From contig OZ024742.1 in the NCBI GenBank assembly GCA_964016885.1, positions 119,784,001 to 119,848,000 on the forward strand: a stretch of DNA of 64,000 nt, written 5' to 3'. Source of the stretch: Eledone cirrhosa (taxonomy: Eukaryota). Position numbers and translations under genes: made by a program. Below are positions 697-61,395 of this stretch, one piece after another (positions within the stretch are counted from its first letter, which is position 1; every line of letters starts with the position of its first letter). The notes under the pieces were generated by a model. That model saw nothing but the letters and a program-made list of their open reading frames with translations, made no database searches and had not been told where the DNA came from.

Positions 697-768
697 TTTT
701 CGAAAGAAGCAAGTTTTGTCAGCTGTTTTAATGACACATTTGTGCAAGCTAATTACAGAAATAAAAAG
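697..768 (+). CDS. CACNA2D: alpha-2/delta calcium channel subunit, local exon 1 (VWA domain): FSKEASFVSCFNDTFVQANYRNKK
   Basis: ttttttccAG acceptor and GTTAGT donor; 72 nt, phase 0-0. Resembles vertebrate alpha2delta-1 [23 protein letters not shown] (recalled). Confidence 0.93.
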
Positions 769-7530: not shown

Positions 7531-7725
7531 GTTATTGTTTAATCTTAATGTGTAATTATTTGGTGGGATAATGGATTGACAGATGTTAAATAAACACTTT
7601 TTTGTATTAATTAAATACCTTATATACTCTGTTTAAATATAACTATGGTTGACTTTGCCCAACTTAACGCAATTTATATTCAATACCAGGTTGTAATAAT
7701 AGCTGTTTATTTCTTTTTATTAAAG

Positions 7726-7804
7726 GTAAGAGTGTTCACGTATGCTGTAGGTCCTACTGCAAATCCTACATCTGCTATACGTTGGATGGCCTGTAGTAAT
7801 CGAG
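7726..7804 (+). CDS. CACNA2D: alpha-2/delta local exon 4 (VWA): VRVFTYAVGPTANPTSAIRWMACSNR(G)
   Basis: taaAG acceptor, GTAATC donor; 79 nt, phase 0-1. VRVFTY.VG...WMAC.N motif. Confidence 0.96.
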
Positions 7805-8525
7805 GTAATCTTATTTGATGATGCTTTCAGTGTTTCAATATTAATTATATTTTTATAATTTGATTAAGATCTGTAACCATTACAAATCTGATTGATTAAG
7901 ATCTGTAACTATTGTAGATTTGAAAAGTTCTTAAAATGATTAGATGGGTTGTCCAGAGTATAAATGACATTGATTGAAGTGCTGAGTTTTTTATATTTTG
8001 TTGTCTGGCCATAGCTTTTTCTTACCATGCCAATCACAGCTGTATTTTTAGCAAACTTTACTTTTTTGTACATCTGTAATTGCAAATTAAAAATAAAATA
8101 CTTAAATCTTCGTAGATAACCACTTGATGTCAACTATAAGTATCATTACAAAGTAACTCTCACAACCAAAAATATCTCATTTAAATAATATATTCTGTTA
8201 CTATCAGAAGTTTAGTATCTGTTTTTTTTGTTTTTTTTTTATTATTGAGATTACTTTATGGCACACATTTTAAAGCTGGTGGCAAGCAATGCAAAGGTTT
8301 AATACAGAAGTTTCGTAATGTAGTTAATATTTATTGATATTAAATGTGATTGGTGTAATCCAATGTAAAGATGAGTTCAAATATTATGTACAGTATATTG
8401 AACATACATGTATTTTATATCATTGTAAAAGGCCTAATAGTCTAAGGCTGCTAGATTTGGAGAATTTGTTAGTAGTCTGATAATGTTGATAATTATATTG
8501 ATTGTTGTGGATTTTATTTTTTCAG

Positions 8526-8575
8526 GATATTTTTCACAGATTCCAGCTATGGGTGCTATACGATCCAAAGTTCAA
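8526..8575 (+). CDS. CACNA2D: alpha-2/delta local exon 5 (end of VWA): (G)YFSQIPAMGAIRSKVQ
   Basis: ttttcAG acceptor, GTAAGT donor; 50 nt, phase 1-0, completing the Gly codon split from exon 4. Matches GYYYEIPSIGAIRINTQ. Confidence 0.95.
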
Positions 8576-9904
8576 GTAAGTTATCAAAAATTCTTAATCG
8601 AAATTCAATTAAAATCTAAAATATTAAAACAATGTTAATTTCTGATATTATTCAATAATTGCTTGCATTTTAAATACTTCTTTCAATCTAAATATTTATC
8701 AGTAAATTAATTTGATTTCAAAATATTTCTTAAATTCTACGAGACATTTCATCAATTGTAATAAGTTCTTTTTCAAACATCTATTCATTAAATGCAAATG
8801 TTGATTATTCTATAAATGTAGCATGATTCTATAAAAAATTACATTTTTTTCCAGGTGTCATTCAGAAAATGTCTTAAATCATATTTTACCACTTCCCGAT
8901 TAAAATTAAATTATATGAATGTTAAATAATTCAGATTATTTTTTTTTCATAAATTACAGGTTTACTTATGGAAATTAAATCTAATTTGCTTTGTTTTAAA
9001 TTTAGCATATAAAAACATATATATATATATCAGCTGTTTATAACGGATTTATAAGATATTCTTTGCATGAAAACAAAAACAGGAAGAGCAGTTAATTAAA
9101 TCCAAAGGAATCTTGCACCTTCATGGGGTTTTAACATTCAATGAAACGGAAAATGTTTTTTTGGCTTGTTTAACTCTCGGCTAGTTTCAATATGCATTGA
9201 TTCTTGTTATCATTATTCTTTCAAAGCATTGATTTTTAAAAAAATTGTTTTTAGAATTTAAAAAAGAAACAAAACAATTATGAAAAGTAATTAAATCTTA
9301 GGGAGGTTCTACTCGCTAAAGTAATACAATATTTGAATTAATCATAGATAAGCAGCTCTTTTATTTAGTGTCATGTGAAAGAAGACATTTTTGTTTTTTA
9401 ATTTCTACTTCAAAATGAAAGTTATGTCTAAGTTGAGGAAAAAATTATGTATTTTTGCAATGGCTCATATTTAATCTTTCAAAATACTAAAACATTAATG
9501 ACTGCAGTACCAATAAAAATTTAGATAAATGATAAATATATATATATATTTATTGTCTATAATATTAATGCAGTATAGGTAGATATGCTTTAAGCTTTTC
9601 ATGTTTCTCAAACAATGTTATTTAGCAATGCAATTTGATATGTTAGAAACTTTGGAAGAAAATAGCAATTTTGAACCCAAATTGGTAAGAAATCAAATTC
9701 TTGATTTAATTAACTAGGTTTATTTAAAATTTATCTAACTGGATAACACATCATCATTCTCATCATTTAATTCCAACTACCAAGATTGTTTTAATTGTGT
9801 TGTTTATCAGTATTCCATTTCAATATGATTTCAGTATACTATCCTTCTCCATTATAGAGTGTGGTTGAGAAAGAAATAGAAAGCTGTAAAAACATTTTCT
9901 GGTG

Positions 9905-10118
9905 CTAGTTGTTATTTAGCCTTAGGTCTGCTCTAATTGAACAGAGCTATGGTCAAAGGCATTTTAGCTGTAACCATCCCATTTTCCCCACACATACTAT
10001 AGCCAAAACTATATTGTACTGTATGGTCATCCATTTTCTTAGATGGTAGTATGTAAGTTGAGGGAGACTTGGTTGCTATTTATAGCTGATCGAAAAACCA
10101 TTAGATGCTCCCTCATAT
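9905..10118 (+). repeat. dispersed repeat, family C (other copies near 4888-5695, 6830-6915, 23033-23212, 39925-40095)
   Basis: Shared motifs ttgtttaacc...ctatgatcaaaggc...accatcc...agatggtag...gagatttggctgctatttctag. Confidence 0.65.
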
Positions 10119-10749
10119 CTAAGACTAGTTGTTAAATACATTGCATAAGGGTAATTTCTTTAGTAGTAAACAAATATTAAATAGTGGTTTGTTTTATGAA
10201 TACTCTGTTTGGAAAGGTTATTTATTCTGACAACATCAAAATGAGATGACCTACTGCAAATGGAATTATTCCAATTTATGGCTTTAGTTACTTAATCTGC
10301 TACATTAGAATAATTTTCAGCTGTTTTTTTCCTCTTTGCCTATATAAAATGTGTTTTGTAAAACATATCTGCTCTTTTTCATCTTCAATTAAGACATCAT
10401 TTCACATTTGTCAATTCCTGTTTTTAAACCCTGTATAAAAGATTGCATTTTTAGGAATGACCTTATTCCATGCATGTTCTATCAAGATGTTTTAAAACAT
10501 TAAAATAACTTCTTTGTAAGCATAAAATTGAGTTCCTGTCATAGTTTTTAACTCTAAAACAGTTTGTAAACATTCACTGTAGGTCAACCCGTTTTCTTCA
10601 GAAAATTAATAAAAAAAAAAAGAGAAAACGTACTAATTCAGCTGTTACTATTACTGCTGTTATTATTACTGCATTTACTAATGTTCATACTGCTATTACA
10701 ACTAACAACTATCAGTATGCCTAACACTACAAATAATAATAATAATAAT

Positions 10750-11925
10750 AGTTGTTTCTACTTTTGGCACAAGGCCAGCAATTATCCCAATACATTACTG
10801 GTACTTTATTTTATCGACCCCATAAGGATGAAAGGCAAAGTTAACCTTGGCAGGATTTGAACTCAGACCGTAAAGGGCCGTAACTCTATGCTGAAAAAAA
10901 TGTATCCAACCCTCTACCGATACTGCCATACCACTACCCTAATAATAACAATAATGATTTCTAATTTAAACACATATCAAGCAATTTTAGGGTGGAGGAG
11001 GTCAATTAAATTATCCCCAGTACTTGACTAGTACTTTATCTTATCAACCCTAGAAAGATGAACAGCAATGTTAATCTTGATGTGATTTAAACTTCAGATG
11101 TAAAGCATCAGAACAAAAAACTGATTGGTTGATGCGTTAACAATTCTGCCAATCCATTACCTTAATATAACGGTTTCTGATTTAGGTGCAAGGCCAACAA
11201 TTTTAGGGGGAGTGGAAAGTCGATTAAATCAATTCCCGTGCTTTACTGGTACTTTATTTTATCGACCCTGCAAGGATGAGAGACAAATTAACCTTGCTGG
11301 GATTTGAACTCGGAATGTAAAAGGCTGTAACTATATGCTGCAAAGCATGTTGTTCAATACTCTACCAATACTATAATAATAGCATTAAGTCAGCCAAAAC
11401 TTTGGATGAAATTTGAAAATTATAGGCCCCAAAAGATGAATTCTGAAGTCACTCTGCTCATAGGATAAAATAATTGTTTCTACTTTAGGCACAAGGCCAA
11501 CAATTACCCAGTGCATTACTGGTACTTTATTTTATTGACCCCGTAAGGATGAAAGGCAAAGTCAACCTCGGCGGGATTTGAACTCAGATCGTAAAGGGAC
11601 GTAACTATGCTGGAAAGCATGGTGTCCGACCCTCTACTGATACTGCCAATCCACCGCTCATAGGATAAAATTAAATACTGCAAGACATTTTCTTGGTGGC
11701 TCAACCAATTCCGATTACCACTAATAATGATAGTAATAATAGTAATAATTACAACAATAATAATTGTTTCTATACTTGCTTAGCTTTTCCTTTAAAGTTG
11801 GCTTATTATGTTGGCTCCTGTATTTAACTGGCAAAGTTTGAACTCATAATGTAAAAGGGATGTAACTAAATACCCCAAAACCATTTTGACCAACCCTCCA
11901 ATGGTTCTACCTATCCACCACCCAA
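10750..11925 (-). mobile_element. tandem cluster of about 5-6 family A SINE copies
   Basis: Repeated ggcacaaggcca...ctggtactttattttatcgaccc...ggatgaaaggcaaagt...ggatttgaactcag at about 10765, 10970, 11185, 11487 and 11830, separated by (aat)n. Confidence 0.85.
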
Positions 11926-12365
11926 ATGATAATAATTGCAATCATGAAGTTTAAAATATATTAGGAATTCTGGAGTGTTTTCTGGTACACTAAATATAAT
12001 GCATATTTCTTTTTATGATATAAAGTGTCTTCGTTAATGATATTTTCAAACCAGCAATAAAAGATTATTGATTAAAGAAAGAAAACAGCATGAAAGGAAT
12101 TTCACGAACAAAAATTTTCTCTTATTTATTAATTATATGCAAAAAATAAGAATCGATGCATATTTACTACAAAATATCTAAATAAATGATTTCATTTATT
12201 ACTGAATTTAAAAAGAAAATGATTATAAAAATTTTACTTTTGAAAAATTTATCATTTTTTAAAAACAATGTTTGATATTTTGGTTGCAATCCATGTAAAA
12301 TATGTTGGTACTGCTACGTGTAATGTATGTGACTTAAGCTCTGCTTGCTATGTTATTTATTCCAG

Positions 12366-12449
12366 CACTATATAGGAGTTCTAGCTCGACCTTTGGCCCT
12401 TAATCATTCTGAATACATCAAGTGGGCTGGGGTTTACCAGGATAGCCAT
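12366..12449 (+). CDS. CACNA2D: alpha-2/delta alternative exon 6A: HYIGVLARPLALNHSEYIKWAGVYQDSH
   Basis: tattccAG acceptor, GTAAGC donor; 84 nt, phase 0-0. Matches EYLDVLGRPMVL...VQWTNVYLDAL. Confidence 0.93.
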
Positions 12450-12849
12450 GTAAGCTGGCTATTACCTCTTCCTTCTACAACTTATATTCCTATTCACTAG
12501 TTATCAACACAATGCTATGCCACATGTTTTCTTTCTTTTCCTACTGCTTGTTTGCCTTACGCTCTAGTTTCTTTACACAATTTTATATTTGTCTCTTTTT
12601 TTTATGTGTGTGTGTATTTTTGATCTCTTTCTTTCCCCACATACAACTGCTTGCATATTTTTTTATGAAATATTTTTTGTATGTATTTACCATCTGTTGT
12701 TACACCTTTTGTAAGTGTGTTTCCTGCTGTCTTTCTCTACATACTGCATTGTGGCACTATCTTTATTGATGTCAAGTGTACCTGATTTTAGCCTGAACCA
12801 AAAAACAAAAAAAAACAAAAAATGATGTGTGCGTATTTCTTTTATTATT

Positions 12850-13205
12850 TTGCTGGTTTCAGTCATTGGCTTGTGGCCATCCTGGAGCACTGCCTTCAAG
12901 GATCTTCAAGCTTCATTTTGACCTCTGTACTCATTTCAGTCTAGTATTTATTTTATTGAAATCTATTTATCAAATAAATAAGTTGTGTGTTTGACATAAA
13001 GGGACATAACACACTGGTTTACACTGGTACACACACACATGCAACATCTACTAAATTTAAATTCAAATATATAGAATTACTATCATTCCACTTAAAAGCA
13101 TCAACAGCTTCAGTAGAAGACACTTGCCTAAGGAGCTGCACAGTGGGATTGAACCCTCAACTATTTGCTTGTAAACTTCTAAACCACATGGCTAAGCTTG
13201 CACAT
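12850..13205 (-). mobile_element. degenerate SINE
   Basis: gtttcagtcatt...gccatcctggagcactgcc and agacacttgcctaagg...cagtgggattgaaccc; related in reverse to 16560-16860. Confidence 0.55.
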
Positions 13206-13254
13206 ATGCATAATGCTGAAGGAACTAGCTTGTCATGTTCCTTTTGGATGATGT

Positions 13255-14664
13255 TTTCATAGTCTCTGTTCAAGAAAAGACTAGCATGAGGTGTTTAAGT
13301 TTTAAGTGGATGACACTGTGCCATGGAGCATTAAAGAAGATTAAATGGTGGTATAATTTACCTGTGTTGTAATAAGTGATAGTAAGCTTATCCTTAATAT
13401 AAAAGAAAAGAGAATGGAGATATAACTCTCCCTTTGGTTTGATGTATTTTCATTGCAGTTTGTTTGGCTGATAGTGGAGGGTTTAAAATTTCCTAACATT
13501 AAATTGCATGTTGCTGTCTTCAGGCTACTTGTTGCTTTTAAGTCTCATTGTGTGTATGTAACATCATCCAGATTCTTGATTGCCTGTGATATTTTCGTAT
13601 CATCAGCATAGCTAGTGAGAGCAGCTGCCTGTATAATTGAGTGTATGTCTGAGTGAGCTACTACAAACAACAGCTACTCTAAGTTCCCTGGTGGATTCCA
13701 TTGACTATTTTATTTCTTTTGTGAGGACACCACAAATTGCAACTGCCTTACTTCTGCCTCTTAAAGAAGTCATATAGCACTTCTCTAGTTTACCGACTAT
13801 GTCGAGATCTCACAGTTTGTGACATATTATTCTATGATAAACTTTATCACAGGGATTTGTAAAGTCACGATAATATATCCACTTTTGATATCCACCTGAT
13901 GATAGCTCTGTTTACCTTTGGAAGAGAATCTGTAGTGGTTTTGCTAAATCCTATTGAGGACTAGTTACTGAGTTTAAGCTCATTTCATCTGTGTATGTTA
14001 TTTCATTTTCCTCCTTAACATCCATATAATTGAAGATTACCATTTCTCTATGTAGAGAAGTAGAATCAAAGAACTCATCTGGCTTATTTATTAGTTATTT
14101 ATGTGATCTCTCAGTTTGAAGTAGCGACTCTAACTGACGTAACTCTGATCTCTGACCTATGCACTCTATCAAGCAACGTTACTTCACAGACCCTGTTGGC
14201 ATTATATAAATTTCTTAAGTTATATCAATGTCTTTTATAAGGACTTTCAGACCTATTTGGTTTGAGGATCTCTTTCTCATTAGCTCTTTCCGTGTGGAGA
14301 GCATGTGTGGTTTCCATCAGACCAAACATTGTTAGTGCAATGTTGTGGTCCAAGAAAATCATCTGTGCCACCTTCACACTTGAAGCTGAAATCGAGAATA
14401 TTTTTACCTCTCATTGGATAAAGTTGTATTTGTTCCAAGAATAACAAGTTAGATAGATAAAGCTGAGACCCTGATTCTCTTTTGTTCATACAGCAACATT
14501 CCTGAGAGAATGTGACCTTCAGGTCATTTGAAATTGGAGAGCTTGAAGTATCTCAAGAGAAGTATTGAAGTGTTGATCCAATTTAGTCAACACACCCTCC
14601 ATTTTTCAAAGTCTATCTTCAAGTATATCTTTGATTTGAAACATCTGGTAGATATGTGGGAGCC

Positions 14665-14714
<50 letters not shown>

Positions 14715-14780
14715 ATAAGTGGCAGTTACTCACAAGCTACAGATTTGTTCAAGCCTGTTAGTAGGCTTCTTGCTCTTTTC
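13255..14780 (-). mobile_element. old degenerate CR1/L2-type LINE fragment
   Basis: Minus strand YADDT (tcgtatcatcagcata near 13595-13610), collinear with the intact LINE at 49.5-52.6 kb; many stops. Confidence 0.6.
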
Positions 14781-15035
14781 TGTCTAAAACTGAATGCTAA
14801 TTGTATTGTTTAATATATATATATGATGTTTATGTATGTAAGGCATCTAATATTATAAGTGTGTTTATCAGCTTGCCTATGTATTTAATGTTTGATTAAT
14901 ATTAACATTGCCAAAATATCCCAGAGTGACATTCTACATTGAATGCATTACACATAGATTATGAAGGATTATAGTAGAAATGTGGTTTCATTAATGTTCT
15001 TTTCTCTGAAGTTCTCTCTGCTGTCTCTCTCTGAG

Positions 15036-15069
<34 letters not shown>

Positions 15070-15092
15070 TATATACAGGTACACACACACAT

Positions 15093-15127
<35 letters not shown>

Positions 15128-15129
<2 letters not shown>

Positions 15130-15430
15130 CTAGGGCGGATAAAATTCCCGAGATCCATGGACGAGTTCTCTCCAGCGGTCTCTGTCCCTCATTATCGCTG
15201 CCATGTCCTTCGTCTCCAACAGACCAGTGTACTGTCCTTAGGGCATCAACATACGTTAACCTTGGTCTTCCTCTTCCAGTGTGTCCATGTAGGGGCTCCC
15301 ACAGGAGCACTGAGTGCAATGTCAACTCTGGATGTCGGTGAGCATGTCCAGCTAACCTCAGTCTCCTCTGTGTCACTTTTGAGCTGACTTTTGGGAGGCT
15401 CCCATACAGCTCTGAGTTTTTCATCCTCAG
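15128..15430 (-). mobile_element. RTE LINE 3' fragment
   Basis: RRLRLAGHAHRHPELTLHSVLLWEP...GRGRPRLTYVDAL; ends in (TA)n. Confidence 0.85.
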
Positions 15431-16210
15431 TGTATATATAAGTTGTGTAATGTTTGTATTAAATAAATATACATTAATCAGTATATATATATATATATAT
15501 AGTAGATATGTGTGTAACTACAGTTATATGCAGTTCACTGGTTAAAGCACTCAATATTGTTACAAGGGTTCATCTCATGTGAGGTTTATATTTCAATATA
15601 CTCCAGGATTAAGGCAACTGTAATATGCAGAGTGTAAATACAGGTAAGCAGGAACAAAGTCAAAGTTGCACCATAAATAAATGTGCCTATGAACTTGAAC
15701 TCACATATCCAATGAGATGTTGATGTGAAGTCGAGCCCCGATTATGATCAGAACCTGGGCTGATCAATATCAAAACAATTGTTATCTGCAATAAAGTTTA
15801 TTTATCACAATTGTTTTGATATTGATCAGCCCAGGTTCTGATCATAATCGGGGCTCGACTTCACATCAACATCTCATTGGATATGTGAGTTCAAGTTCAT
15901 AGGCACATTTATTTATGGTGCAACTTTGACTTTGTTCCTGCTTACCTGTATTTACACTCTGCATATTACAGTTGCCTTAATCCTGGAGTATATTGAAATA
16001 TAAACCTCACATGAGATGAACCCTTGTAACAATATTGAGTGCTTTAACCAGTGAACTGCATATAACTGTAGTTACACACATATCTACTATATATATATAT
16101 ATAGTTATTTAATGTATATTTATTTATAGATATATATAGTTATTTAATGTATATTTACTTATAGATATATATAGTTATTTAATACAAACATTACACAACT
16201 TATATATACA
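15431..16210. repeat. long palindrome (foldback)
   Basis: 15500-15782 is the reverse complement of 15807-16089 with no mismatch seen and a 24-nt spacer. Outer arms 15431-15465 and 16176-16210 also pair. Confidence 0.95.
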
Positions 16211-16449
16211 GTTACTGGCTAGTTTCATGTAAGGTGTAGATTACTTTATTACAGACAATATATTTGCATCTACTGAGGAAATTTTCAAACCTTAATGTTC
16301 ACAAACAGTGGATCAGTAAATTGTAAGAAAAAAAAAATGAGAATTGTATATTATTTGCGAGTAGAGATTTAAAATGATATTTATTTTCCAATGAAATAAT
16401 CTGCACAAAACATGAAACCAGCCAGTAACCTTATATAATGTTATATTTA

Positions 16450-16520
<71 letters not shown>

Positions 16521-16559
16521 GTAGGCACCTACATGTATGTATATAAGTGTGTATCTTTG

Positions 16560-16860
16560 TGGATGCAAGCAAGTCCAAATAGTTAGGAAGTTTGCTTTGC
16601 AATCATACAGGCCTTGGTTTGATACCACTGTGTGTACTCTTGGACAAGTGTCTTTTACCATATCCTTGGGTCGACCCAAGCCAGTGAGTAAAATTAGATA
16701 GCAAGAAATTGTGTGGGATTTTGTCAGATAGATTGTGCCTGTTATTCCATAGTCTAGCCTTGTCATATAAAGTAAGAGAAGGGTACATGTGTCCATGGGA
16801 TACTCATTCACCTGCACGATGATTAAACAGCTGAGTGCGCATCACTGAAACTGACAGAAG
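16560..16860 (+). mobile_element. degenerate tRNA-derived SINE
   Basis: gttaggaagtttgctttgcaatc...ggtttgataccactgtgtg...ttggacaagtgtctt. Confidence 0.55.
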
Positions 16861-17857
16861 ATCCACCATGTATGTGCCTGTATGTTTGTATATATGTATA
16901 TATAAAGATATATATATATATCATCATCACTGCTTAACGTTTATTTTCCATACCCGCATAGGGTAGATGGCCTGTCAAATTATGAAGTCAGCCAAGTCAA
17001 GTGCCTATGTCTTGTTTATACAATCTGTTGAGATTTTTGTTTTCTATGACTGGATGTCCTCCCTAACATCAACCATATTACAGTGTGTACTGGAAGCTTT
17101 TTTTTGTGCTACCACCACTACCACTTTACAACGTGGAATGACACATTTTTAAAATGTTTATACCAATAGTTGTTTTCTTAATATCATACATTATTATATT
17201 GACCCTAGTACTATTTTATTGACCATTCATTAATCTCACAAGGCTAAACACATAGCTCACTTCTTGACCAATGGTTGTGAAAACAATGGCGATCCCATGC
17301 TGTTTAGAACAGCCAAATAAAAACCTTGTCAGAATAAAAGCTTTGGCTGGAGTTAACATTTGAGACATTGTAATGCAAGATAATAGTTTTATTAAAGAAA
17401 CAAAGTACATCAAACCTAGAGCTGCACTGTAAACTGCCTATTAAAATGTAGTTTGAAGTTATGTGTAATTATAATCAGTAATATGGATATAAGGTATATG
17501 CATCATATGAGATACACAGATCATTGAGTTATGATGCATAGTTGTGAACAAACTCAATATGAAAAGAAAATCTGGTTTTACAAACCGCTAGTGTAAACCA
17601 TCTCATAGTATACTTGTCTATCCTAGATAAATGCTTCATATAGCATGCTCTGCCAATTGAACTATGTCTCAAATATAGTGTTGGTGGAAACGTTTTGCTG
17701 CAACCACTACATTAAAATGCACACAATCAGCAGTCATAACTAGGCTATGCTGTCAATGCAATATGAAAGATGTGCAAGGACCAGTACTCTCACCAGTACA
17801 TTAGTGCTTGATGCTTGATGCCAAACCTCTCACTTTGAATAGGGGTTTTCTGCACTC

Positions 17858-17898
<41 letters not shown>

Positions 17899-18105
17899 AT
17901 ATATATATATATATGGAATAAACTTCTAGAAACTACAGTTATGGCAATCGTAGTGGTTTAAATGGAAGTTTTTCAAAAGCACCATACATTGTTACTTTCA
18001 TATACAATAATGAAATGAGCCATTGATTGGGTTGTTGAACCCTACTCTTTCTGCCCGTATATTCAAATATGTTGCGATAAAAACAAACCGTGTGTGTGTG
18101 CACAC

Positions 18106-18396
18106 CAGTGGTTCTCTAATTGTGTGGCATAGTATACTGATGTGCCATGAAATATAGTTAGATGCACTGAAAAAATAAAATATCTAAAAAGTACAAAAAA
18201 TAAAAACTGAAGTTCTAAATATAAATTCTTTATCTATGCCTCATTTATTGAATAAAGAAATATTTTAAATCACTTATATTTAAAGGTTAAAATATATAAA
18301 TACCATGATTTGATATATTTTTTATTTATGTAAAACATGTGCTAAAATATATCTATTTGCTGTTGAGTGTGAGTAAAAAACATTTTAGAATCACTA
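18106..18396. mobile_element. hAT(Charlie)-like MITE
   Basis: Imperfect terminal inverted repeats cagtggttctctaa and ttttagaatcacta. Confidence 0.45.
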
Positions 18397-19423
18397 ATGC
18401 ATATATAAAATAGTTTCTGATAAAATAGTGACATGTTTAATGCTTTTAGTCTAGTTTAGAAACTGAGGGCAATAAAATATATCATTGGTTTTATTTGAAT
18501 ATAAATGTATCATCTATTTTTTTCTTATAAATATTCATAAGTAATACATTATCTGAAAAGAATAGGTTTCTTAAATTAAATTCAGTTTATGTAAAAGAAT
18601 TTCTGAAATATAAATATTATATTACCTTCAACTTAACTCTGGAGTGATTTCATGTTAAAGTTGAAATATTCATAAGTTTACATATACCAAATTAATGCTA
18701 TATATCTTTTGATGTTTTAAAAATATTTGAGTTATATTTAGTTTCTTATTTTTTCTAAACTTTCTTAGTATCTAAGCAAAATGTAAAACGTATTGGTAAT
18801 CCATTGTATGAAAAGTATTTTATTCACAACATAGTCTTGAGTAGTTTTTTAATATGTAGCATGTATATTAGAGATATTTGTTAAATACATTAGGGTGAAA
18901 CAAATATATTAATTTAACATTAATTATATCTGTTTTAAATATATTACTCAAAGCAACTATTCAATTATATATAATTATATCAGGCTAAAACAGTTTCTCT
19001 TAAACCAGAGTTCCAAGCACTTTTGTTATGTCCTTTTTCACTTATTATGCTAGTTACCCAGCTTATTTCATTTATTTCTCACTTGCATCAATTATCACCC
19101 CATCATTCCTTTTACGGATCTCACAGATTGGTTCCAAATGAATATCACATAATTGTTATTTAAACATTTGTTGTTGTTTTTTTTTTCATAAATATTCAAA
19201 ACTTTACTTTCAGCTATAATCAAGCCAGGTGCATATCACAGACATTTTGTGATTTATGTTTTGATAATTTCTTTTATTTCATTTAATACAACTTTATAAT
19301 ATTTCACTCTATCCAGACATTTTCTCAAGTTTTTATGTGGATTTTTTTGTTAAAATTTGATTTTATGAATATTTTTTGTTGATGTTTTTATAAAACATTT
19401 TGTTGCATCTGTATTACCTACAG

Positions 19424-19498
19424 GAGTTTTTGAAGCATATGGGTTTTCCAGAAGATGACACTGAACAATTTCATTGGTCTCTTGGACTAGATCGTTCG
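19424..19498 (+). CDS. CACNA2D: alpha-2/delta candidate divergent alternative exon 6B: EFLKHMGFPEDDTEQFHWSLGLDRS
   Basis: ttacctacAG acceptor, TCG|GTAACA donor; 75 nt, phase 0-0, open. Starts E-F-L like E-Y-L, has G-x-P at the G/S-R-P position, then Trp and a D-x-x end. Higher GC than its flanks. Confidence 0.6.
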
Positions 19499-20976
19499 GT
19501 AACATTTAATACTTATATAGCTGGTGAAATTTATAAGTTTAGGGTTGCTTCTACTGCTGCAAATACCCACTGTTTTCTTTTAAAGAAATGTTAATGTTTT
19601 TTTTTCTCTTCTGCTAAAATGAACATTGGCATGTCTTCTCAGTCTATAAGAATCATTAACTTCTTTAGAAATGTTTTAGTAAATAATATTTCTTTCATAT
19701 ATTTCATAAAACTAAGAATACACTACCATATAAGGCTATAATGATGTAAACTTTTCTCAAATATACACAACCAGTAAAATGTTTCAGATAAATTATTTTG
19801 AATATGAATAAGTTTCTTCCCTGAAGACCTTCTGGTGTCCAGTTCTCCTGAGAGTTTGTTACCACAGCACTAATTTTACCTTTCAACAAAGTAATGAAAG
19901 GTAAAGTTTGTGTAACTGAGATTTAAAATCAAATCAAATTACCCATGTATTCACATAGATATATATATGCAAATTTCTGTAAATACATGGCACAACATTA
20001 AGTTTAAAATGTATTTATTATATATATTTGTACATTATTTGAGAAAAATGAACACATAGTTCCTTACTGTATGTTAATTGTATTCTTTGTTTGGTCTGCT
20101 AGAAAATACAGATGATTATTCTAATTGATTTATAAAACTGTAATGGCATGGTGGAATTGCTTTCAGGATTATTATTCAAATATTATGAAATTGTGCACAT
20201 TTGACTGGGTGTGATAATTTTTGGTGGTGGATATTTGATAGTCATCATAATTTAGTAGCTTCTCTGAAACTAAACGTAATTATATGCATATTAAAAAAAT
20301 ATTTCTGTATCTTCTATTTATCTATTCATCATTGCTTCTTCTTTTATCATTACAAAAAGGATCATGATCAACTTTTAAAACATTTTGACTCAAATTGGTT
20401 TCAGTTCAAAATAAGGTTCCAGCATTGAATTGTTGTACATAATATGAAATAAAATATTCAGTGTCTTCCCTAGAACACAATACATTGCTGGCAAAGTGGT
20501 ACAAACTTATGATTCTTCAGTTACAATCTAATCTCTATTCACAGTCATTGCAAACCTTCATGAATTTTCTCACTCATTTTAACTTTTTGGAGACATATTG
20601 TATTGTTACCTTACTATACTGCTTTACTTTATATCCATTGCAGTATTTAGTCTTATCTTTTTATGTTTTGACTGCATCATATGATTATTGGCAAAATGAA
20701 ACAGGCACCAGGTATGCTGAGATTGTGTATGAACTGATCAGTTAGGTAATACATCTATTTTGAAAGGTCAATTTGGTCATACACTGAACTTTTGTCTTAC
20801 GTTGAAATATTAGTTAAGAGTTAGTGACTTGATTGATAAACAAAACTGTCAAGAAACTAATGACTTATTTGGTAGTTATAGTTATTATTTATATTGAATT
20901 TTTTATCCCTCGAATGAATAAATACAACTCAGACTTTAAATCCTATATGTAAACAGACTAGTTTATTAGTTATATT

Positions 20977-21260
20977 TGTGTAGCTTTCTCTAGACAAAGG
21001 GAAGTAGCTGGAGTTACTTCCTGTTGAATTCTAGGTAGGAATTATAAAAGAGGGAGAAAAGAGACATCTTAGCCTTTTGGCGACCGGCTCTCGGACAGTT
21101 CACTCACGAGCGAGTTTGGTATAATCTTATATCTGTATCGAATTAAATTAGTGGTTGGCCTGCAGTGGTGTTTACCAAAGTAAATAACCCTGTGACCAAC
21201 TCACTAAAGTGGTGACCCCGACATGAGTGATGGTCTGGATGCCAGCGCAAATGGTTGGTT
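20977..21260 (+). mobile_element. LTR retrotransposon 5' remnant: LTR plus tRNA-Trp primer-binding site
   Basis: TG start, TATAAAAG box near 21044, then TGGTGACCCCGAC(A)TGA at 21210-21226, complementary to the tRNA-Trp 3' end (...TCACGTCGGGGTCACCA). Confidence 0.7.
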
Positions 21261-23517
21261 TTAACTGTTTAAGGGAAAGTCTGTTGGTTTATATTATATA
21301 GATATATAATATATATATATGTGTGTTTCTTTTTTCCAGGGCCAAGTTGGCGGGGTGGGTTTATTACTAATATCAACATTTAATTAATTAACAATGATAC
21401 ATTTCAAACATTAGATATCAGTAGAAATAAAAAATTGTCCAAGTAGTTGGGACTCCAGAAAATCTTATTGCTAAACAGTTTGCATATAGGAAATAAGAAA
21501 ATGGTTTTGTATATAACTATGGTAAATGGAGAGAAAATAAAAATTAAGTTTCAAATTTGCTGAATCAGTATTGTTATTATTTAGTTGTGAAGCATTTTGT
21601 TAGATATCAAAGATTCTCGGTAAATTGTTCTGTTAAATAGTTTATATAAATATATAAATATGGGAAAATTAAATACTTGCAATAAATAATAATTGAATAA
21701 GCTGAATGTTTTATATGTCAATTAATTAATTCTATTTGCTCATACAGGCAATGGGCTAAAGGATATTTATATATAACATTAGAGGGGAGCTGCTTCTTAA
21801 AAAATGATCTAGTGTTTTACAAAATAGCTTTTTTTGTTTTCAAAGCACTGTAAGCTTGCTTTATTTTTTTTTATGGAAGTAGGCATTTGGTTAGCAGGTG
21901 TATCTATCATTTTTCCATTGTATCTAAATAGGCTATTTTTAGATGAACATTTGTTATGTCTTTTTTGTCCCTAACATACATGATGCACCCTATTCAGCAA
22001 TTGCTTTTTAAATATAATAAATTAAATATAATAAATTAAATTAGGTAAAATACTGTTTAGTAGTTTGTGAAGAAAATATTATTTCATCAATTCCTCTTAC
22101 ATTTCCTATCCTCTTCTTGCAAGTGGTGAATGGTGACCTTTTGGTATACCTAAATCTTTAAACTATAATAATTTTCTACTTTTTCTGTCTAAAAGCATTG
22201 TTGTTAAGATCTCCAGTGTTTCTCCAATCTTGATAATACAGAACTTTTTTCAGTAAGTTTTTTCCCAACTATATAACAATTTAATCAAGAAGGCTTAAGT
22301 CATATTATTATATACATTAAAGTCATGTTCTTAAATAAATAACAGTATTTTGTTATTTTCTCAATAAGTGAAGTATAAATTTACTGTTTTTAAATAAGGC
22401 CAAAATTATGGATTTAGACACCTTAATGCTTTGTTGTTTACTTTTTCTATTAATCTTCATTATTGTTATGATGATTGGCATGCTGTTAAAAATTTAGTGT
22501 TTGCATAGTTACAACCAATCTACCTCTATTGCTTGGGCATGAGTTATGATATACGGTGCATATAAAGTAGAATGGCTCTTACTAAAACTGAATAAAAATT
22601 TATAAAAATTTATTCTATAATTCCTTGCAAAACTGTTTCTAAAATATGCACTATAAATATTTCTAAAAAATGTATGTTAGAATTTTCCCTACATTTAATT
22701 TATAAGTTATAAACACAAATTGCTTTTGTTATAAATTACATTATTATGTACACCATAATTTAGCTTTTAGTTTTCAGTAAATTGAGTCCACAAACTTAAT
22801 TTCCTTTCTGGTGAAAACTATTTTTCTTGCGTTTTAAAGACACCGAGAGAAAGCTGAATGTAAGAATGTGAGATTTCTTAACCTTTATAGATATAATAAT
22901 TCACAACATTGTAAAAGATATTATCTATATTTAGATATTACCTATTCAACTAATTTTATCAAAAATACTAAACATTTTATTGGAATTAATGCATTTTCTT
23001 AAAACAGCTACAGTAAAACATCTTCTTATGCAGTTGTTGTTTAACCCCAGCTTGACCATGATCAAGCATTCCTATGATCAACAGCATACCAACTATGACC
23101 ATTCCATCTTTTTAAAGGAGTGCATTATCAAATATATTCTTTTATTATAAGATGCTAAGGTTTTATTTGAGAGAGAAATATCTAATCACATAGAACTTTC
23201 CATATTGACTCCCTGTTACACTAATTTTAGATTGAGTTGCTATCATAATATTTATGAAAGTAACATGTGTAATTGCTGATTATAAATTTTTAATTACCAT
23301 GTAATGATTGCAATTAATTGGTTATCTGATGGATAGTAGTATTCAATATCAACTAGCTACAAAAATCTCTATTTCATATGTGTGTGAGTGTGTGTGTGTT
23401 TGAGAGAGGGGGAAGAGAGCAATATATATTAATATCATGTATATCTCTTAAATTGTTTCCATTTGTTGGTTTCATATAAATTGTAATTTTCTTTACCCTG
23501 TTTGATAGCAAATCTTC

Positions 23518-23733
23518 TTAACGCATTCCTGGTTCTACAAAACAAAGCTGTTAATTTTAAAATATTTAATTATAGTTCTAGGTAAGAACTTTTATGTTGT
23601 ATTCCAGACACCAGATAAATAATGAGAAAATTAGTTATGTTACTAAATCATTCCAAATTATTGAATGTCTTCAAAATTATTTGAAAATCATAGACAATGT
23701 ATTCCACTAAAAATATGGTAATGAAAGGGTTAA
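23518..23733. mobile_element. degenerate piggyBac-type MITE
   Basis: TTAAcgcattc at the left end and gaaagggTTAA at the right end. Confidence 0.5.
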
Positions 23734-26700
23734 TTATAATAAAATATAACACAATATGCAGTTGATAAGGTTATACCAAACTTTGACATCTAAATTATTT
23801 TCTTCCTCAGGAAACATGTTAGTTCTTTCAGTTTATCTAGCAAAAGCTTACATTTCATTTTTTCATCATAATTGTTCTCATTTGGGCAAATCACTCAAGT
23901 ACAAAGCAACATTGTATGTACTCAGGTACATTCAACATTGCATGAGGATGTTTGAAGCTTGACAGCCATCCAGCAATGGTAACATTTTGGATAAATCATT
24001 TTTCTAAATTTTTGTTTACCATTAATATTGCTATTCCTGAATTTTATTGCACAACAGAAATAAATGAATGGAAATTATATACTTAAAATAATTAAGCGAT
24101 TGTGTGTACATTGCTTTCTTACACCCTTAGTAAAATTAAATTGAGCAGAAATGATATAGCAATACTATTGTCATCAGCTACAAGGATAAAGCAATGACGA
24201 ATTTAGCTCACTGGAAATACAGTTTGATATGATGCAGTTTGATTTTTTTTCTTTTGAATATAGAACCATTAATAGCATATTTATAATGAACTAGCTTCAA
24301 AAGTAATTGACAAAGAATGAATGAATATTAAAACTATTTAAAAGTTTCAGGTCTATGTTCTTGCGAGGGTCTATGTGCCAACACTTGGTTCACCTTGTAA
24401 AGTCTATGAGCAAACTGCAACAAAAGCTTAAGTTGTAGAAGTGAGAGATAATGTCATAATCTGAAGGTAAAATATTCTACGAATAAGAGACTAATTAAAG
24501 GCCTGGGCTACAATGTCTAACAAGTTTAAAGAATGTTGATTTTTTTTATGTCCAATGCAAAGGAAGAAATTAATTTCATGTTTCAATACTTATTCAATAC
24601 TATTGTGTTGAATGATTGGTAACAAACCTTTTGGTGTGCCATATATACTTGTGTAAGAAGCGTCATATACATTGGAGAACAGGTGACTGTGACTGGATCA
24701 TTGGAAATAAATTTCTAGATTTTGAACTATCTTTTGTTTTCACACAAGTTGAAAGTAAAATTTGTTTTTAGTAACACAATATCTCTGCATTCAAAATACG
24801 AATAGAAAGTATATTACATTCTAGTAGAATTTGAGCAATGAAATCAAAAGATGTGTTATGATTAGAGAGAAAGGCATTCCAATAAACTGGAAATGTATAA
24901 GAATATTAGAATTAATGTGTGATAAAATCATGCAAGAGATGACTATGTGAAAAGTTTACATAAGCTGATTTTAGAAACCAACATAGGATAAAGGATGAAC
25001 TAGAGTTTATCTTAGAAAGTTAGACTACTCACATCAGGTGAGACAAAATTGAAATGTTTGAAATGTCATGCTACAGATCCATCTGCTTCGTGCCAACATA
25101 GGAAAGTTGATGTAAATTATTGATTTTTCTTTTATACGATTAACATTATTAGACTGGTTCGACTTTCTTCAATACATATGTTTTTCATATTATGGAATGG
25201 AAAATTTACGTGATAAATTTTTTGTAGTAAAATCCATTCAATTTTGTTAATAAAAATATTTTTTATTGATAATCCTTCCGGCAGCAAATATATTATGATA
25301 ATCTGTCTGATTGATAATTTTACATAAATTTATTTCATATTTACGTTTAACACTATTAACGTAATCAACTACTAGGCCATATAATGTTGGTTGTTTTGTT
25401 TTTTTAGATTAGCAGGGAGCATCATTAATTTCATACTCAATTTTTTACAATTTTTACTTAGCTTCTCACAAATTATATTCAGTAATGTTGTCCTTATATA
25501 AATCTTAGTTCCCACATTCTGATGTCAAATTCTTTTTATTACCCACGCAGGGAAAACTTCTATTTCTTTCAAGTCCTGAAAGCTGTATGAAATATACTAC
25601 CAGTAATAATTTGAACACCACTCCAACAGAACTTGCTACAATTTAAAGGGTGAGACCTTGAATTATGTGTCCTTTCTAGCAATACATATTTTCTCTTTAT
25701 AAGATGGAAGTTTAAAAAGGAATTGGTTTCTAATCTCAACAGATTGAGCAAACATTTAGAGGCTTCTCCTTTGCTGGCTTCCGTCTCTATGTAGAAGCTG
25801 CTTTGGTGGCAACCATATAGAAGCAAGCATATAGAAGCTTTCTAGTTGGCTTGAGTGACTCTGTTGAAGATTCCTTATTTACTTAAGCAAGTGCAAAGAA
25901 ACTCCCTCATTAGAACAAAAGTAATGATTTACTCCCTTCAACTAATCTGAAAAGTGATTATATATTATGTCTGCTTACTGGTGTGTCTTATATGGGAAGT
26001 TAAAATATTTGTACCTATCTTCCTCACTAAATGTTAAACTCTATAATATAGGACAGTATGAACAAATTTTTCAATATTAAAAAGGGTTTACACTCCTTTG
26101 AGTTCTTTCTATCACTAGGTTGATTCCACTTTGCTTCTAATATTTTTATCATACATTAGGAAGAATTTAATGTTGATGCTTTTAATTCACAAGAGGAAAT
26201 ATAAATACATAGCTTTTTTATGATTATTTATAAAATAACTGTATTAAATCTGAAACTTTCAACAAGTTATTTTAAATAACATAGCCTTATGTTTTGATCA
26301 TATTTCAGCTGACTTTAAACCATTATCTAGTTCCTTCTGATGGATTATTAAATTAAAGCAAACTGATTAGTAACCAAGAAAAAATGAATGCTTTAACATA
26401 CATTGAGGCATTCTATTTTTAGAGCAAAAATCTAAAGGTATAAAGTTATTTGTATTTACTTTGTTTAACAAATGCAAAATTAGCCATGTGTTCAACTCTA
26501 ATAAACAAGTAGTCATAGATTTACATGTTTCTCTATTAAAAGTAATAATGTTCATTCAATTATGTTCTGAATGGATAATTTAAAATATGTGTAAAAGCTC
26601 CAAAAATACTTATCACCAAATATAATAACTGTAGTAACAAATCATTATTCAATTAGTAGCAAAGAATTACTTATATTTATTTAAATTTCAAATATAGCTT

Positions 26701-27983
26701 TAAAAACAAATATGGTTATTCAATCTGATTGTGTTGCTATTTTCTTATCTCTTGTCTAAATATGATTTTTAAAATATTAAGATTTTAATAAGCTATAATG
26801 ATTGTGATGTTAATATACTTAACCAAAGATTACATGGTTTAAATGTTACTATTGCCAGTGTGTTGTGTGTTTAGGTAAGCTGCCTAACTAAAGTTCCAGT
26901 TCTATTTCTCTGAACCAGCTGAAAAATTAAATTGAAAATCAAAATCTAAATTGATATAACTAAATACTGCAAACTATTTTGTCTAACACTAATCTAATTC
27001 TATAAATCCACCACACATTTAAACTTATTAATCATTTGAAATGGTTGAAATACACACAATTGAAAAAGTTACAAAAGTTATCCCAAGGATAAAAGTCAAG
27101 ACTTATTTGATTTACATAGAAATGGGGAATGTTTAAAGGGTTTTCCAGAAAATGTTAGAATAATTCAGCATAAAAATTTCAAACTTTTCATGTTACTAGA
27201 ATATTTCAGAAAAAGTTAAAGATGTAACCATCAGCCTCCTACAAAATAACCTACAACTGTAACTTTATAGCACATGTATGTTTAAATAATTTTAAATATG
27301 CTAAATGCATATTCTAATTTTGAATAAACTTATTCAAATGCTGGCTGACCATTATCCTGTTATAAGATCAGTTATTTATATTATGTTAGTAATATCAATG
27401 ATTAGATTACTTAATTTCCAATTTTGTAATAGTTAATGATTCTACTATTTAAATATATTTACATAAAATGCTTTAGGTTTTGAAATAGTAAATTGTTGAA
27501 TATTATAAATATATATATAGATATTTAACTGAAAATTAACCTATATCTATACTGTGTGGGTGGGAATGGATGTTGGAAACATGAGTTTTGGAACAACTTT
27601 GGAAGTTTTCTATCAATGTTTTCGAATTTGCAGATTTTACTAATATCTGTAAATACTGTCATATTATTATTATACATCAGCGTGAAGGAATTCATATAAA
27701 AAGATGTCTAATTCCAATGATGGAAAGTAGAATCTGCAATTTAGAAAAGCTTAATGGTAAGCTACTGAAATTGCTTTACACATTCATTTCAATACAATAT
27801 GCTTATATGCTTCAACACTATTTGCTTTATATATGTATATATATATATATATATTAATATATATTAATATATATATATTAATATATATTAGTCCAGAAAT
27901 AGCCGTCGAAACGGCTTGAGCTCTGCCGTCAGGGTCATACTTTTTCCTATATAATATATATATATATATATATTAATATATAT

Positions 27984-28076
<93 letters not shown>

Positions 28077-29349
28077 ATGAACACTTATACTGCAGTAATA
28101 TTGATAAAATATTTTGTTTTTAATGATTTTTTTAGAATATTTATATCCATATTCTGTGTTAGACAATCATCAACTCTCTTCACAAGGGGCCTTGTTATCA
28201 TGCCTTCACCTAAATAAATTTGCTGTGAATATTTATATTAAGTTTTTCAGTACTTTTATTTGATACCCACTGATCATTTGATCCACAAATTCTGTTCACT
28301 CCACTCTTATCATGTTTACTGAATGTCTATATGATTGAACTTTTCTCTTTTGCAGAAAAAAATATCTGATCTTCATAATTACTAGTTGTCTTTATAGCTT
28401 ATCTAAACATTCTATCACTTTTGATTTATTATAGATATATCTAATCATATTGGCTCTTCTTTCTAGACTTTGTTGATCATCTATATTTAATGCTTCTTTT
28501 ATGCCTTTTTTTATGAAGAGAAAATCCCACAAACATCAACATCTTTTCTTTGAACATCTCCTAATCAATTTTGGCTTGTATTATTCCATTATGTATTGAT
28601 CAAGACCCTTACATAACATATCTCTTATCTGTATTTTACTATCTTGGGGAAGGATTTTTGCCATAAGACTTGTATGCAGTATCAGCCTTCTCATTTTATA
28701 ACTGCTGCTTTTTAATCAACTCATTGGTTGTATTACTTTTGAAGGCTATCAATATTTGTCTTTGTGAACTTTAGAAAGAAAAACACTCTAACAGTTTCAT
28801 CAAAAACAGTATTTGTTCTTTCCTATATATAGAAACTAACAAGTCATAACTCTGATGCAATTTGCTATCCTAATGAGAGTATGAAATAGTTTCTGTTACA
28901 ATTAGACATATTTCAACTGTCTTATTTATTTTGGTTTGGTATATATTTTTTCTAGTTAAATTGTTGAAAACGTTTTAGTCAAAACTGTGGACATGTAGTC
29001 TCATACATCATGTCTAATTGGAAAGGAAAGAGTTTTAAAGTTTAATACTACAACCTAATGAAAATTTTCCAACGTTTTAATAGCAGAATGTTTCACTTCA
29101 TTACATCAATACCCATACTACTTACCATGTCTGAAAATATCTCATTTGCAATGATGACTTTCTGTACAAAATTCTCATTTCCAGTATTTGATTCTGCAAT
29201 AACGTTCAGCACATCACTTTTATACTTCGAAACAATCCTTCCAAGATCAGCTTTAAAAACTTTCTTAATTTATAACGTGATACTAAACTTCTTTTTCTAT
29301 TTATATATTTTTTAAAAATATAAAATGTTTTATTGTAAAAAATGCAAGT

Positions 29350-29905
29350 GCCTTTTGTGGTTATGAAAACGGAAAAGGCTTTAGGGTCAAAGAAGAATGG
29401 GAAGGGTGATGGGCATAGGGTGCGACAGTATTGGGGCTGTGCTCCATGGACAGGACAATGGCTAGTGTCACCTGATGCAACAGCCGCACCACCTTGCAGA
29501 GCTCCTTCCTCAGATGAGCGGCTGATGTTCTGATCTTGCAGAGGAGCTCAACAATACGGGGTCCAAGTATGCCTGAGGTCTCGACAGTGACCAGTCTGAA
29601 AAGGAAGTGGCCAGACAATCCCCAGTATTTGTTTATCTTCCTTTCCTCTGCATTGCGGGCTGTGGTACCAGGGTATGTGGCCAAAGCGACTAAGTTGGAG
29701 GCGGAGAATGTGTCACAATATGTAGTGTCTAAGATGAGGGATCTACTTCCTTTGAATGGAAGAAGGTAATTCCATTGGGGTGCTTGCCATCTCCAGTTGT
29801 GATGGGAAGCCATCTGTATCGAGGCTCCTTCTCAATATGTTGTTGAGAGCGGCATGATGGGGGAACCAGACTGTGCTCTGATTGCAAGACAGTGGGTGCA
29901 GGCCT
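29350..29905 (-). mobile_element. non-LTR retrotransposon fragment, RLE domain (CRE/NeSL-type)
   Basis: LPFKGSRSLILDTTYCDTFSASN...ARNAEERKINKY.GLS..FLFRLVTVETSGILGP; same type as 7270-7530. Confidence 0.75.
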
Positions 29906-30504
29906 CTTTCAATTGATATATACTGTAATGGAATACTATTTTCTATGTCAAATATTTTGTATAATTTTTTTTATCTCAGTCTTGGGGATATCATAAGGAA
30001 AGAATTTAAGTATGTTTTCTCTCTCCGCAAGTTAGTTGATTTCTATTGTTTATATTACTAATAATATTGCGAATTCTACTGTTTCTATAAGCTTCCAAAT
30101 GTTCGTAAATATTACATAATTTACAAGACACTGGTATTTCAGTGTTAATTGATCATTGTAAACAATTTCATTATTCCACACTCCTTTTTACTATTCACAT
30201 ATATTAAATGGAACTGACTGACATCATAAGGAAAACTATTCTTTAATGTTTATTTAAATAAGTTATAAGGTTTTGTCATTTTTATACCATTTTGAAATTG
30301 CTGCTCTATATAACCTCACTCTGTATCTTGTTTTTATTCAGAACTAACAGAATTGTTTGTCATTATTTTCTTTTTATTAAGATAAACTTTCTGTTCCTTT
30401 TTTTAGAAAGACATTAATGTAAATTCCATTTTTAGTATCGCATTGGATATTTTACAATGTAATACTTTGATTTGGCTAACTTGAAAACCTTGATTTGTTC
30501 AAAG

Positions 30505-30588
30505 GAATATCTTCCTGTTCTCAGTCGACCATTGGTGCTAGACAATGCCAAACACAGTGAGTGGGTGAACATCTATTCTGACAAAATG
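30505..30588 (+). CDS. CACNA2D: alpha-2/delta alternative exon 6C: EYLPVLSRPLVLDNAKHSEWVNIYSDKM
   Basis: CTAAC branch point at 30476-30480, aaAG acceptor, ATG|GTATTT donor; 84 nt, phase 0-0. Aligns with 6A without gaps. Confidence 0.92.
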
Positions 30589-42578: not shown

Positions 42579-42598
42579 GTATATATAATATATATATG

Positions 42599-42631
<33 letters not shown>

Positions 42632-52635: not shown

Positions 52636-52688
<53 letters not shown>

Positions 52689-57864: not shown

Positions 57865-57921
57865 GGGTTAGGCATGGTAACAACTGTAACGTTACCTGTA
57901 TATAACCGAACCTTAGGAGCC
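57865..57921 (+). CDS. CACNA2D: alpha-2/delta local exon 7 (dCache): GLGMVTTVTLPVYNRTLGA
   Basis: tctttcAG acceptor, GTAAGT donor; 57 nt, phase 0-0. Matches ELGLVITGTLPVFN. Confidence 0.95.
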
Positions 57922-58766: not shown

Positions 58767-58844
58767 AACAATCAGACAATTCTTGGAGTGATGGGAGTCG
58801 ACATAACAACAGATGATATGTTAAAGAAAATTGAAAGGAATAAA
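58767..58844 (+). CDS. CACNA2D: alpha-2/delta local exon 8: NNQTILGVMGVDITTDDMLKKIERNK
   Basis: ctttcAG acceptor, GTATGT donor; 78 nt, phase 0-0. NQ.ILGVMGVD motif. Confidence 0.96.
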
Positions 58845-61320: not shown

Positions 61321-61395
61321 CTTGGGCCTCTCGGATATGCTTTTGCTATCAATCGAAATGGCTATGTTGTATTTCATCCAAATTTGAAAATTCCT
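61321..61395 (+). CDS. CACNA2D: alpha-2/delta local exon 9 (Cache): LGPLGYAFAINRNGYVVFHPNLKIP
   Basis: ttttttcAG acceptor, GTAAGT donor; 75 nt, phase 0-0. LG..GY.FAI..NGYV..HPNL Cache motif. Confidence 0.96.

Follow-up and report, generated by a model that had tools for sequence, protein, structure and literature searches.

The window analysed here, a stretch of 64,000 nucleotides (nt) at C3:119784001-119848000 in the 3.0-Gb genome of the octopus Eledone cirrhosa, carries eight constitutive exons of a gene for an alpha2delta calcium-channel subunit (CACNA2D), together with three alternative versions, 6A, 6B and 6C, of one short exon that lies between the fifth and sixth of them. All positions are those of the window, and all features lie on the + strand unless stated; Y450 and D452 refer to residues of human alpha2delta-1. 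The alternative exons and the constitutive exons that flank them are as follows:

8526..8575, + strand, constitutive exon 5' of the cassette, ending at a phase-0 donor, GTAAGT
12366..12449, + strand, alternative exon 6A, 84 nt, 28 residues, with the Y450 and D452 equivalents kept; QHY..DSH in Table 1 of PMC5818475
19424..19498, + strand, alternative exon 6B, 75 nt, 25 residues, divergent, with G at the Y450 equivalent and D452 kept; QEF..DRS in Table 1 of PMC5818475
30505..30588, + strand, alternative exon 6C, 84 nt, 28 residues, with Y450 and D452 kept; nearest to the single ancestral exon
57865..57921, + strand, constitutive exon 3' of the cassette, with the equivalents of T461 and T463

Each alternative exon is preceded by AG and followed by GT, and all are in phase with their neighbours, exon 8526-8575 ending and exon 57865-57921 beginning in phase 0. 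The coordinates, lengths and translations that an earlier reading of this DNA (the original prediction) had given for three phase-0/0 exons at this site were recovered in full. 6A and 6C align without gaps and share 10 of 28 residues, exactly the ten that had been named (global BLOSUM62 score 66, z 10.5, with 0 of 5000 shuffles as high), and at the DNA level 43 of their 84 nt are identical. Against a profile of canonical exons built without cephalopod rows, 6B reached z 5.0 (0 of 300 shuffles), a modest test because the anchored ends favour 6B. The introns between the copies measure 6,974 and 11,006 nt, all introns are of the GT-AG type, the three exon lengths are divisible by three, and the donors of 6A, 6B and 6C read GTAAGC, GTAACA and GTATTT, respectively. 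DNA contigs of sequencing run X2 are unbroken across 6A (11634-14655) and 6B (17924-19600).

No fourth copy was found among 64 open phase-0/0 AG..GT candidates between 8600 and 57800, and local scans of the window yielded only the three; a match at 34046 (score 33) fell within background and was rejected as an extra copy. A genome search with 6C, a loose first look that also missed 6B, matched only 6C and 6A. The claim that this exon alone is repeated holds, as the neighbouring exons gave best local scores of 30-40 within 8601-57800, compared with self scores of 79-140, and the flanks of the copies are unrelated, their scores (15-29) lying within the null of random intron pairs (median 25, 90th percentile 31). 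A 54-nt candidate at 57574-57627, faintly resembling exon 58767, shows no DNA similarity to it and is present in no orthologue; it was attributed to chance.

The remaining constitutive exons of the gene in the window are:

697..768, + strand, VWA domain, identified by splice sites and a match to Octopus bimaculoides protein P0022
2792..2881, + strand, VWA domain, identified by splice sites and a match to O. bimaculoides protein P0022
4711..4836, + strand, VWA domain, identified by splice sites; the first homology query
7726..7804, + strand, VWA domain, with a 4,061-nt contig of run X1 identical over 7725-7802
58767..58844, + strand, with the equivalent of D491, the last residue of the amino-acid-binding motif
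61321..61395, + strand, dCache_1 domain, identified by a match to O. bimaculoides protein P0022

A genome search with P0022 returned 31 matches, 26 of which fall in one locus of ~300 kb around the window. Over the eight constitutive exons, 194 of 208 residues are identical to the O. bimaculoides protein and 190 of 208 to a Sepia-type protein. The O. bimaculoides orthologue contains VWA_N, VWA, dCache_1 (below the Pfam cut-off) and VGCC_alpha2 domains and matches the solved alpha2delta-1 with an E value of 5e-188. Judged by sequence, the gene is the octopod orthologue of the molluscan alpha2delta-1/2-type (CACNA2D) gene. The other genome matches, C4:186586181-186586333, C7:307200-307745 and C9:11135641-11135805, are probably paralogues. 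In addition, C563:13237-13323 holds a 79%-identical piece for residues 533-561 that is unmatched at the main locus and may be an unplaced exon of the gene.

Comparison with relatives bears out the proposal of an old exon duplication kept under selection, with counterparts of the copies in cephalopods, gastropods and bivalves, isoforms carrying one copy each in all three mollusc classes, and several copies of the exon in nemertean, brachiopod and annelid records. 6A is identical at 28 of 28 residues in the E. cirrhosa window, O. bimaculoides (isoforms X1/X5) and Sepia; 6C matches O. bimaculoides (isoforms X2/X4) and Argonauta at 27 of 28 residues and Sepia at 25 of 28; and 6B matches O. bimaculoides isoform X3 at 18 of 25 residues and Sepia at 15 of 25, the changes being mostly mid-exon and the last eight residues being fixed in the three cephalopods. 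Of the O. bimaculoides RefSeq isoforms, X1 and X5 contain A, X2 and X4 contain C, X3 contains B, and X6 has no copy. Sepia gene models and Sepia-type transcript-contig proteins have A or C singly, and in three records B is joined to the upstream exon. All three types are annotated singly in abalones, Biomphalaria, Physella, Pomacea, Littorina, oysters, scallop and Dreissena, and in one model each from Elysia (P0012) and Biomphalaria (P0145) A, B and C follow one another in the order seen in the window. Gastropod and bivalve A copies have 3-8 extra residues at their end, and oysters and mussels harbor a fourth copy, D, of 25 residues. Isoforms of the nemertean Lineus have two versions of the exon and Lingula-type records three, and Capitella, Paralvinella and Ridgeia-like gene models string two or three. 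Among arthropod and deuterostome records, 160 of 168 had both flanks, and the segment occurs once in all 160 (five records were assigned by similarity, and large clusters are represented by 15 members listed); in the eight outgroup sets with multiple records, the versions differ at no more than 4 of 28 residues. Vertebrate records likewise carry the segment once, as had been stated.

The distribution of the aligned copies places the duplication at least as early as the split of cephalopods, gastropods and bivalves, because copies are present in these three classes and the exon is single in arthropods and deuterostomes; it is probably older. Phylogenetic analysis of the exon (79 rows, 28 columns; rows P392_3, Ridg_2 and P0433 left out) placed C in one group over the three mollusc classes (82/87) and D in another (99/94), whereas the B copies were set apart by a branch that is weak and long (73/61) and the A copies did not form one group. 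Among the annelid, brachiopod and nemertean copies, only one of Owenia and a Lingula-type one group firmly (98/93), none being matched one-to-one with A, B or C. Twenty-eight columns are too few for more, and because the labels of classes A-D had been assigned by eye ahead of the scoring, class scores and tree are partly circular. By these scores B evolves fastest, with within-class means of 13-32 compared with 86-105 for C.

[quoted passage not shown] The gabapentin/leucine pocket has 13 lining residues, including rabbit Y452, D454, A455 and L456 (10.1101/2022.12.05.519047), and Y450, D452 and L454 were among the 12 residues that mattered in a mirogabalin alanine scan cited in PMC11308618. 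Counted along the 8IF3 alignment, the cassette exon corresponds to human alpha2delta-1 residues 425-454, and four pocket residues (human 450 and 452-454) fall within its last five, about 23 of its 28 residues preceding this pocket-lining end; the original prediction overlooked these ligand-pocket residues. With the alignment anchored at the 3' end, tyrosine occupies the Y450 position in all 160 outgroup records, all 14 C copies and all 3 D copies but in none of 18 B copies, and the D452 position is kept in all the outgroups, C and D copies and in 16 of 18 B copies. The A copies, anchored at their tryptophan, have Y in cephalopods and bivalves (9/15) and H or E in gastropods (6/15). R241, W243, T461 and D491 are kept in constitutive exons of the gene, and cephalopods and bivalves keep these four. 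In the N-terminal YxxxxRxW motif of the window gene, F replaces the first Y and R and W are kept; of the C-terminal Y (Y450) and D (D491), isoforms A and C have both, and the Y is absent in isoform B. As aligned, classes A, B and C differ at the ligand-binding residue itself.

The cassette is not hidden, as the original prediction had it, being already in print and in RefSeq. Dunn et al. 2018 (PMC5818475; Fig. 1, Table 1 and supplement) list the site, with the same gene, position and event type, and their Table 1 gives O. bimaculoides versions corresponding to 6A and 6B, plus two oyster versions; the E. cirrhosa 6B differs from that of O. bimaculoides in its middle. By eye, one of the three Aplysia versions reported there resembles A and the other two resemble C, and none is of type B. 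The third of these (supplement, splice 7) is C-like with N at the Y450 position, and Aplysia may hold a further copy. The main text of that paper merely lists the site, the words "gabapentin" and "ligand" being absent and "duplicat" never referring to it. A 2023 follow-up (PMC10657410) reports reverse-transcription polymerase chain reaction of exons 15a/15b with primers that, read by hand, flank the cassette site. Where these two papers deal with the site, the exons are neither treated as duplicates nor tied to the pocket, which was defined in 2022. A literature search conducted mostly outside subscription journals and bioRxiv supplements found no publication linking the exon to the pocket, and the wording of PMC12919962, PMC4342343 and 10.64898/2026.09.15.751774 had no bearing on the cassette. 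RefSeq sets of molluscan CACNA2D-like proteins (O. bimaculoides XP_052825055-65) contain A, B and C singly at the same junctions; they differ from the present account in being automatic models without mechanism or function, and other molluscs add doubles, and oysters and mussels copy D. What the present analysis adds to the record is that the swappable exon carries the second half of the conserved ligand motif, one class being apparently tyrosine-less over three mollusc classes.

That the three exons form a real alternative cassette is virtually certain. Among 87 RefSeq isoforms in 15 sets (Mytilus represented by its 6 listed isoforms only), 61 contain a single copy, 19 two copies and 7 none, the corresponding numbers for Octopus being 5, 0 and 1; RefSeq models keep rare junctions and give no proportions, so the count shows leak or noise and not its size. 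The doubles are A+C in three Haliotis sets, Physella and Magallana, and A+B, B+C and A+D elsewhere, and none of the nine cephalopod transcript-contig proteins covering the site joins two copies. The proposal of mutually exclusive isoforms stands insofar as the copies are used in place of each other; exclusion appears leaky, strict Dscam-style exclusion is no more than a proposal, and in E. cirrhosa the use of mostly one copy of the three is highly likely. The 4,061-nt contig of run X1, exact over 7725-7802, suggests a spliced transcript.

Concerning how a copy might be chosen, a search for docking/selector pairing in 300-nt zones gave, for the worst duplex of three, best values of -16.4 (upstream) and -17.9 kcal/mol (downstream) at step 10, and of -15.6 and -16.4 at step 20, compared with nulls of -15.6 to -19.7 and -16.1 to -20.0 from 12 random triplets each; no pairing exceeded the null. 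A scan of AG-exclusion zones and branch points returned 25, 92 and 67 nt for 6A, 6B and 6C, inside the range of the constitutive exons (21-112 nt), and indicated no distant branch points. Known mechanisms of exclusion include a short intron, U2/U12 mismatch and decay of frameshifted doubles (PMC6071210), and the anatomy excludes all three, the first by the 6,974- and 11,006-nt introns, the second by the three donors and the GT-AG introns, and the third by the frame-keeping lengths of 84, 75 and 84 nt. Regulated splice-site competition is favoured for this reason: the choice would be made by competition of weak splice sites, steered by splicing factors (or by undetected RNA pairing), and such competition would also permit leak.

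Collectively, the explanation that we favour, and regard as probable overall, is that tandem duplication of one 28-codon exon, which arthropods and deuterostomes have as a single copy, preceded the cephalopod/gastropod/bivalve split, and that splicing mostly includes one copy between the shared flanks, sometimes none and, in other molluscs, sometimes two. The exon is predicted to extend from where the VWA domain ends to the strand completing the first dCache pocket, and a swap would alter both the pocket wall and the VWA-dCache joint. C would represent the ancestral-type pocket and A a modified one, and B would most likely bind amino acids weakly or differently because the motif tyrosine is absent. 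The likely output would be isoform-specific trafficking or modulation of CaV1/CaV2 channels.

Several observations weigh against this explanation. At the raw level, the pairwise similarity of 6B is the weakest part (z 2.2 versus 6C, z 1.6 versus 6A), and cephalopod 6B scores no better with gastropod/bivalve B (mean 0.8-5.7) than with other classes, which leaves position, ends and a weak branch as the grounds for calling them orthologous. The loss of Y450 in B depends wholly on anchoring the alignment at the 3' end. In the constant half of the E. cirrhosa pocket, Y236 is replaced by F and V207 by Y, two replacements that are listed for the gabapentin-insensitive alpha2delta-3/4 (10.1101/2022.12.05.519047). 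All nine gastropod rows have Q for the key R241 despite the cassette, the other 37 rows having R, and this arginine is essential for gabapentinoid binding; because gastropods lost R241 and kept the cassette, amino-acid binding may not be the selected trait. The 19 doubles and 7 skips among the 87 isoforms indicate that exclusion is not strict or that RefSeq records splicing noise. In Aplysia, neither of two versions was preferred in sensory neurons relative to the whole nervous system (PMC10657410). Finally, no E. cirrhosa cassette junction was seen among the contigs of the two runs compared over 7600-19600, where high-copy repeats filled the tables of joints and loose ends, making the result neither for nor against.

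An alternative reading, unlikely though far from negligible, accepts the copies as real and places selection on the surface or mechanics of the VWA-dCache joint (channel outer loops, matrix, synaptic partners, folding or export), the pocket being incidental or vestigial in molluscs. This is consistent with some 23 of the 28 residues preceding the pocket-lining end, with B differing most in mid-exon and gastropod/bivalve A copies adding 3-8 terminal residues, and with gastropods still keeping three copies without R241; vertebrate alpha2delta splice variants in the cache domain have also been linked to synapse formation (PMC9901441). However, no single-copy lineage or C copy departs from the tyrosine and all B copies have lost it, a change that is consistent and affects a buried contact with the ligand, and R241, W243, T461 and D491 are kept in cephalopods and bivalves. 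Were the exons instead independent cassettes forming no exclusive set, with single, double and skip forms all meant and the doubles acting as inserts, the A+C, A+B, B+C and A+D doubles and seven skip forms in RefSeq, together with the in-frame state of every product, would be expected. We consider this improbable: doubles are found in none of six O. bimaculoides isoforms and none of nine cephalopod transcript-contig proteins, RefSeq retains rare junctions and cannot give proportions, and the core strand is present once in all 160 outgroups, which suggests that the pocket would not fold in a skip form.

The rapid evolution of B (13-32 versus 86-105 for C), together with three Sepia-type records (P0029, P0033 and P0037) that run past the 6B donor to an intron stop, could also point to 6B as a decaying or attenuating copy, yielding a poorly folded or truncated subunit that lowers alpha2delta output. 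There is little probability in this either, as all 18 B copies examined across three mollusc classes remain open and in frame, D452 is present in 16 of them, the last eight residues are invariant among three cephalopods, and full-length B isoforms are annotated in many species. An assembly artefact or chance open frames, which the short exons, the A+T-rich and repeat-rich intron and the weak pairwise similarity of 6B might suggest, can be dismissed: other cephalopods have annotated counterparts of all three exons, which refutes this account, and the contigs of run X2 continue over 6A and 6B. For the favoured reading, an ancient duplication of the exon at the pocket wall and domain joint, the odds that the isoforms differ functionally at one or the other are slightly better than even, whereas it is possible but rather doubtful that the difference lies in amino-acid binding itself. 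More tentatively still, and on balance improbably, the cassette may be a lophotrochozoan splicing switch of the amino-acid pocket (canonical C, modified A, tyrosine-less B) that predates the split of the mollusc classes, with more copies in oysters, annelids, a brachiopod and a nemertean.

In comparison with known systems, the cassette resembles the Dscam, Mhc, MRP1 and 14-3-3 zeta clusters (PMC6071210) in its tandem homologous, interchangeable exons of like length and frame, but it has three copies only, 7-11 kb apart, with no docking/selector pairing detected and with doubles and skips in relatives. It resembles the alpha2delta-1 dCache_1 motif (PMC8915833) in that R241, W243, T461 and D491 are constitutive and Y450 and D452 lie in 6A and 6C; unlike in mammalian alpha2delta-1, the Y450 part is on a swappable exon and absent from 6B. 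The F for Y236 and Y for V207 are shared with the gabapentin-insensitive alpha2delta-3/4. The splice regions A, B and C of vertebrate alpha2delta-1 lie elsewhere and are inserts, whereas the molluscan cassette is a swap.

Some further observations concern the relatives' records. In P0029, P0033 and P0037 (Sepia and Sepia-type), the frame passes the 6B donor into the intron and then stops, and in P0005, P0122 and P0401 the frame likewise continues past an alternative copy's donor to a stop in the intron; such records would yield a short secreted VWA-ended fragment and may be retained introns or broken models. Lineus isoforms P0049-P0055 and P0019 have optional micro-inserts of 6 and 9 residues after the alternative exon, and P0364, a more distant alpha2delta-like protein, likewise strings two versions of the segment. 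In amphioxus (Branchiostoma), RefSeq isoforms (P0197, P0280, P0271 and P0210) swap two versions of the exon orthologous to 8526-8575 and one gene model strings both, apparently the outcome of a separate duplication of the adjacent exon of this gene.

The introns of the window contain various repeats. In the 6A-6B intron, a perfect inverted repeat at 15486-16103 comprises two 300-nt arms and an 18-nt loop; short-read contig depth on one arm is ~2x that of its neighbours, which fits a real palindrome, and the repeat would make long double-stranded RNA in the pre-mRNA with no exon looped out. Four diverged copies of a high-copy interspersed element lie directly upstream of 6A (10747-11624). The 27-kb intron after 6C holds a long interspersed nuclear element (LINE) on the minus strand (49586-52756) with an unbroken frame of 1,056 codons encoding endonuclease and reverse-transcriptase domains, and shorter LINE-like remnants occur near 42589-43191 and 62990-63650. 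A tandem array at ~4950-5600, in the intron after exon 4711-4836, consists of about a dozen near-identical ~53-nt units visible in the translations, and 52925-53203 and 61993-62295 are a near-identical pair of one interspersed element.

As a discovery the cassette is ordinary, since it is on record. Mammalian alpha2delta-1 binds leucine and gabapentinoids in the pocket, and the natural purpose of this binding is not known (PMC9901441). The cassette offers a test system, in which a protein that is otherwise unchanged comes with three forms of its pocket wall, in animals that serve neurophysiology (octopus, Aplysia and Lymnaea). Should ligand binding or channel trafficking differ between the versions, the question of the pocket's purpose would become testable, and if the pocket switch is true, these natural variants would show that purpose. 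Such a switch would also provide a route by which invertebrates with few alpha2delta genes may diversify the control of their calcium channels.

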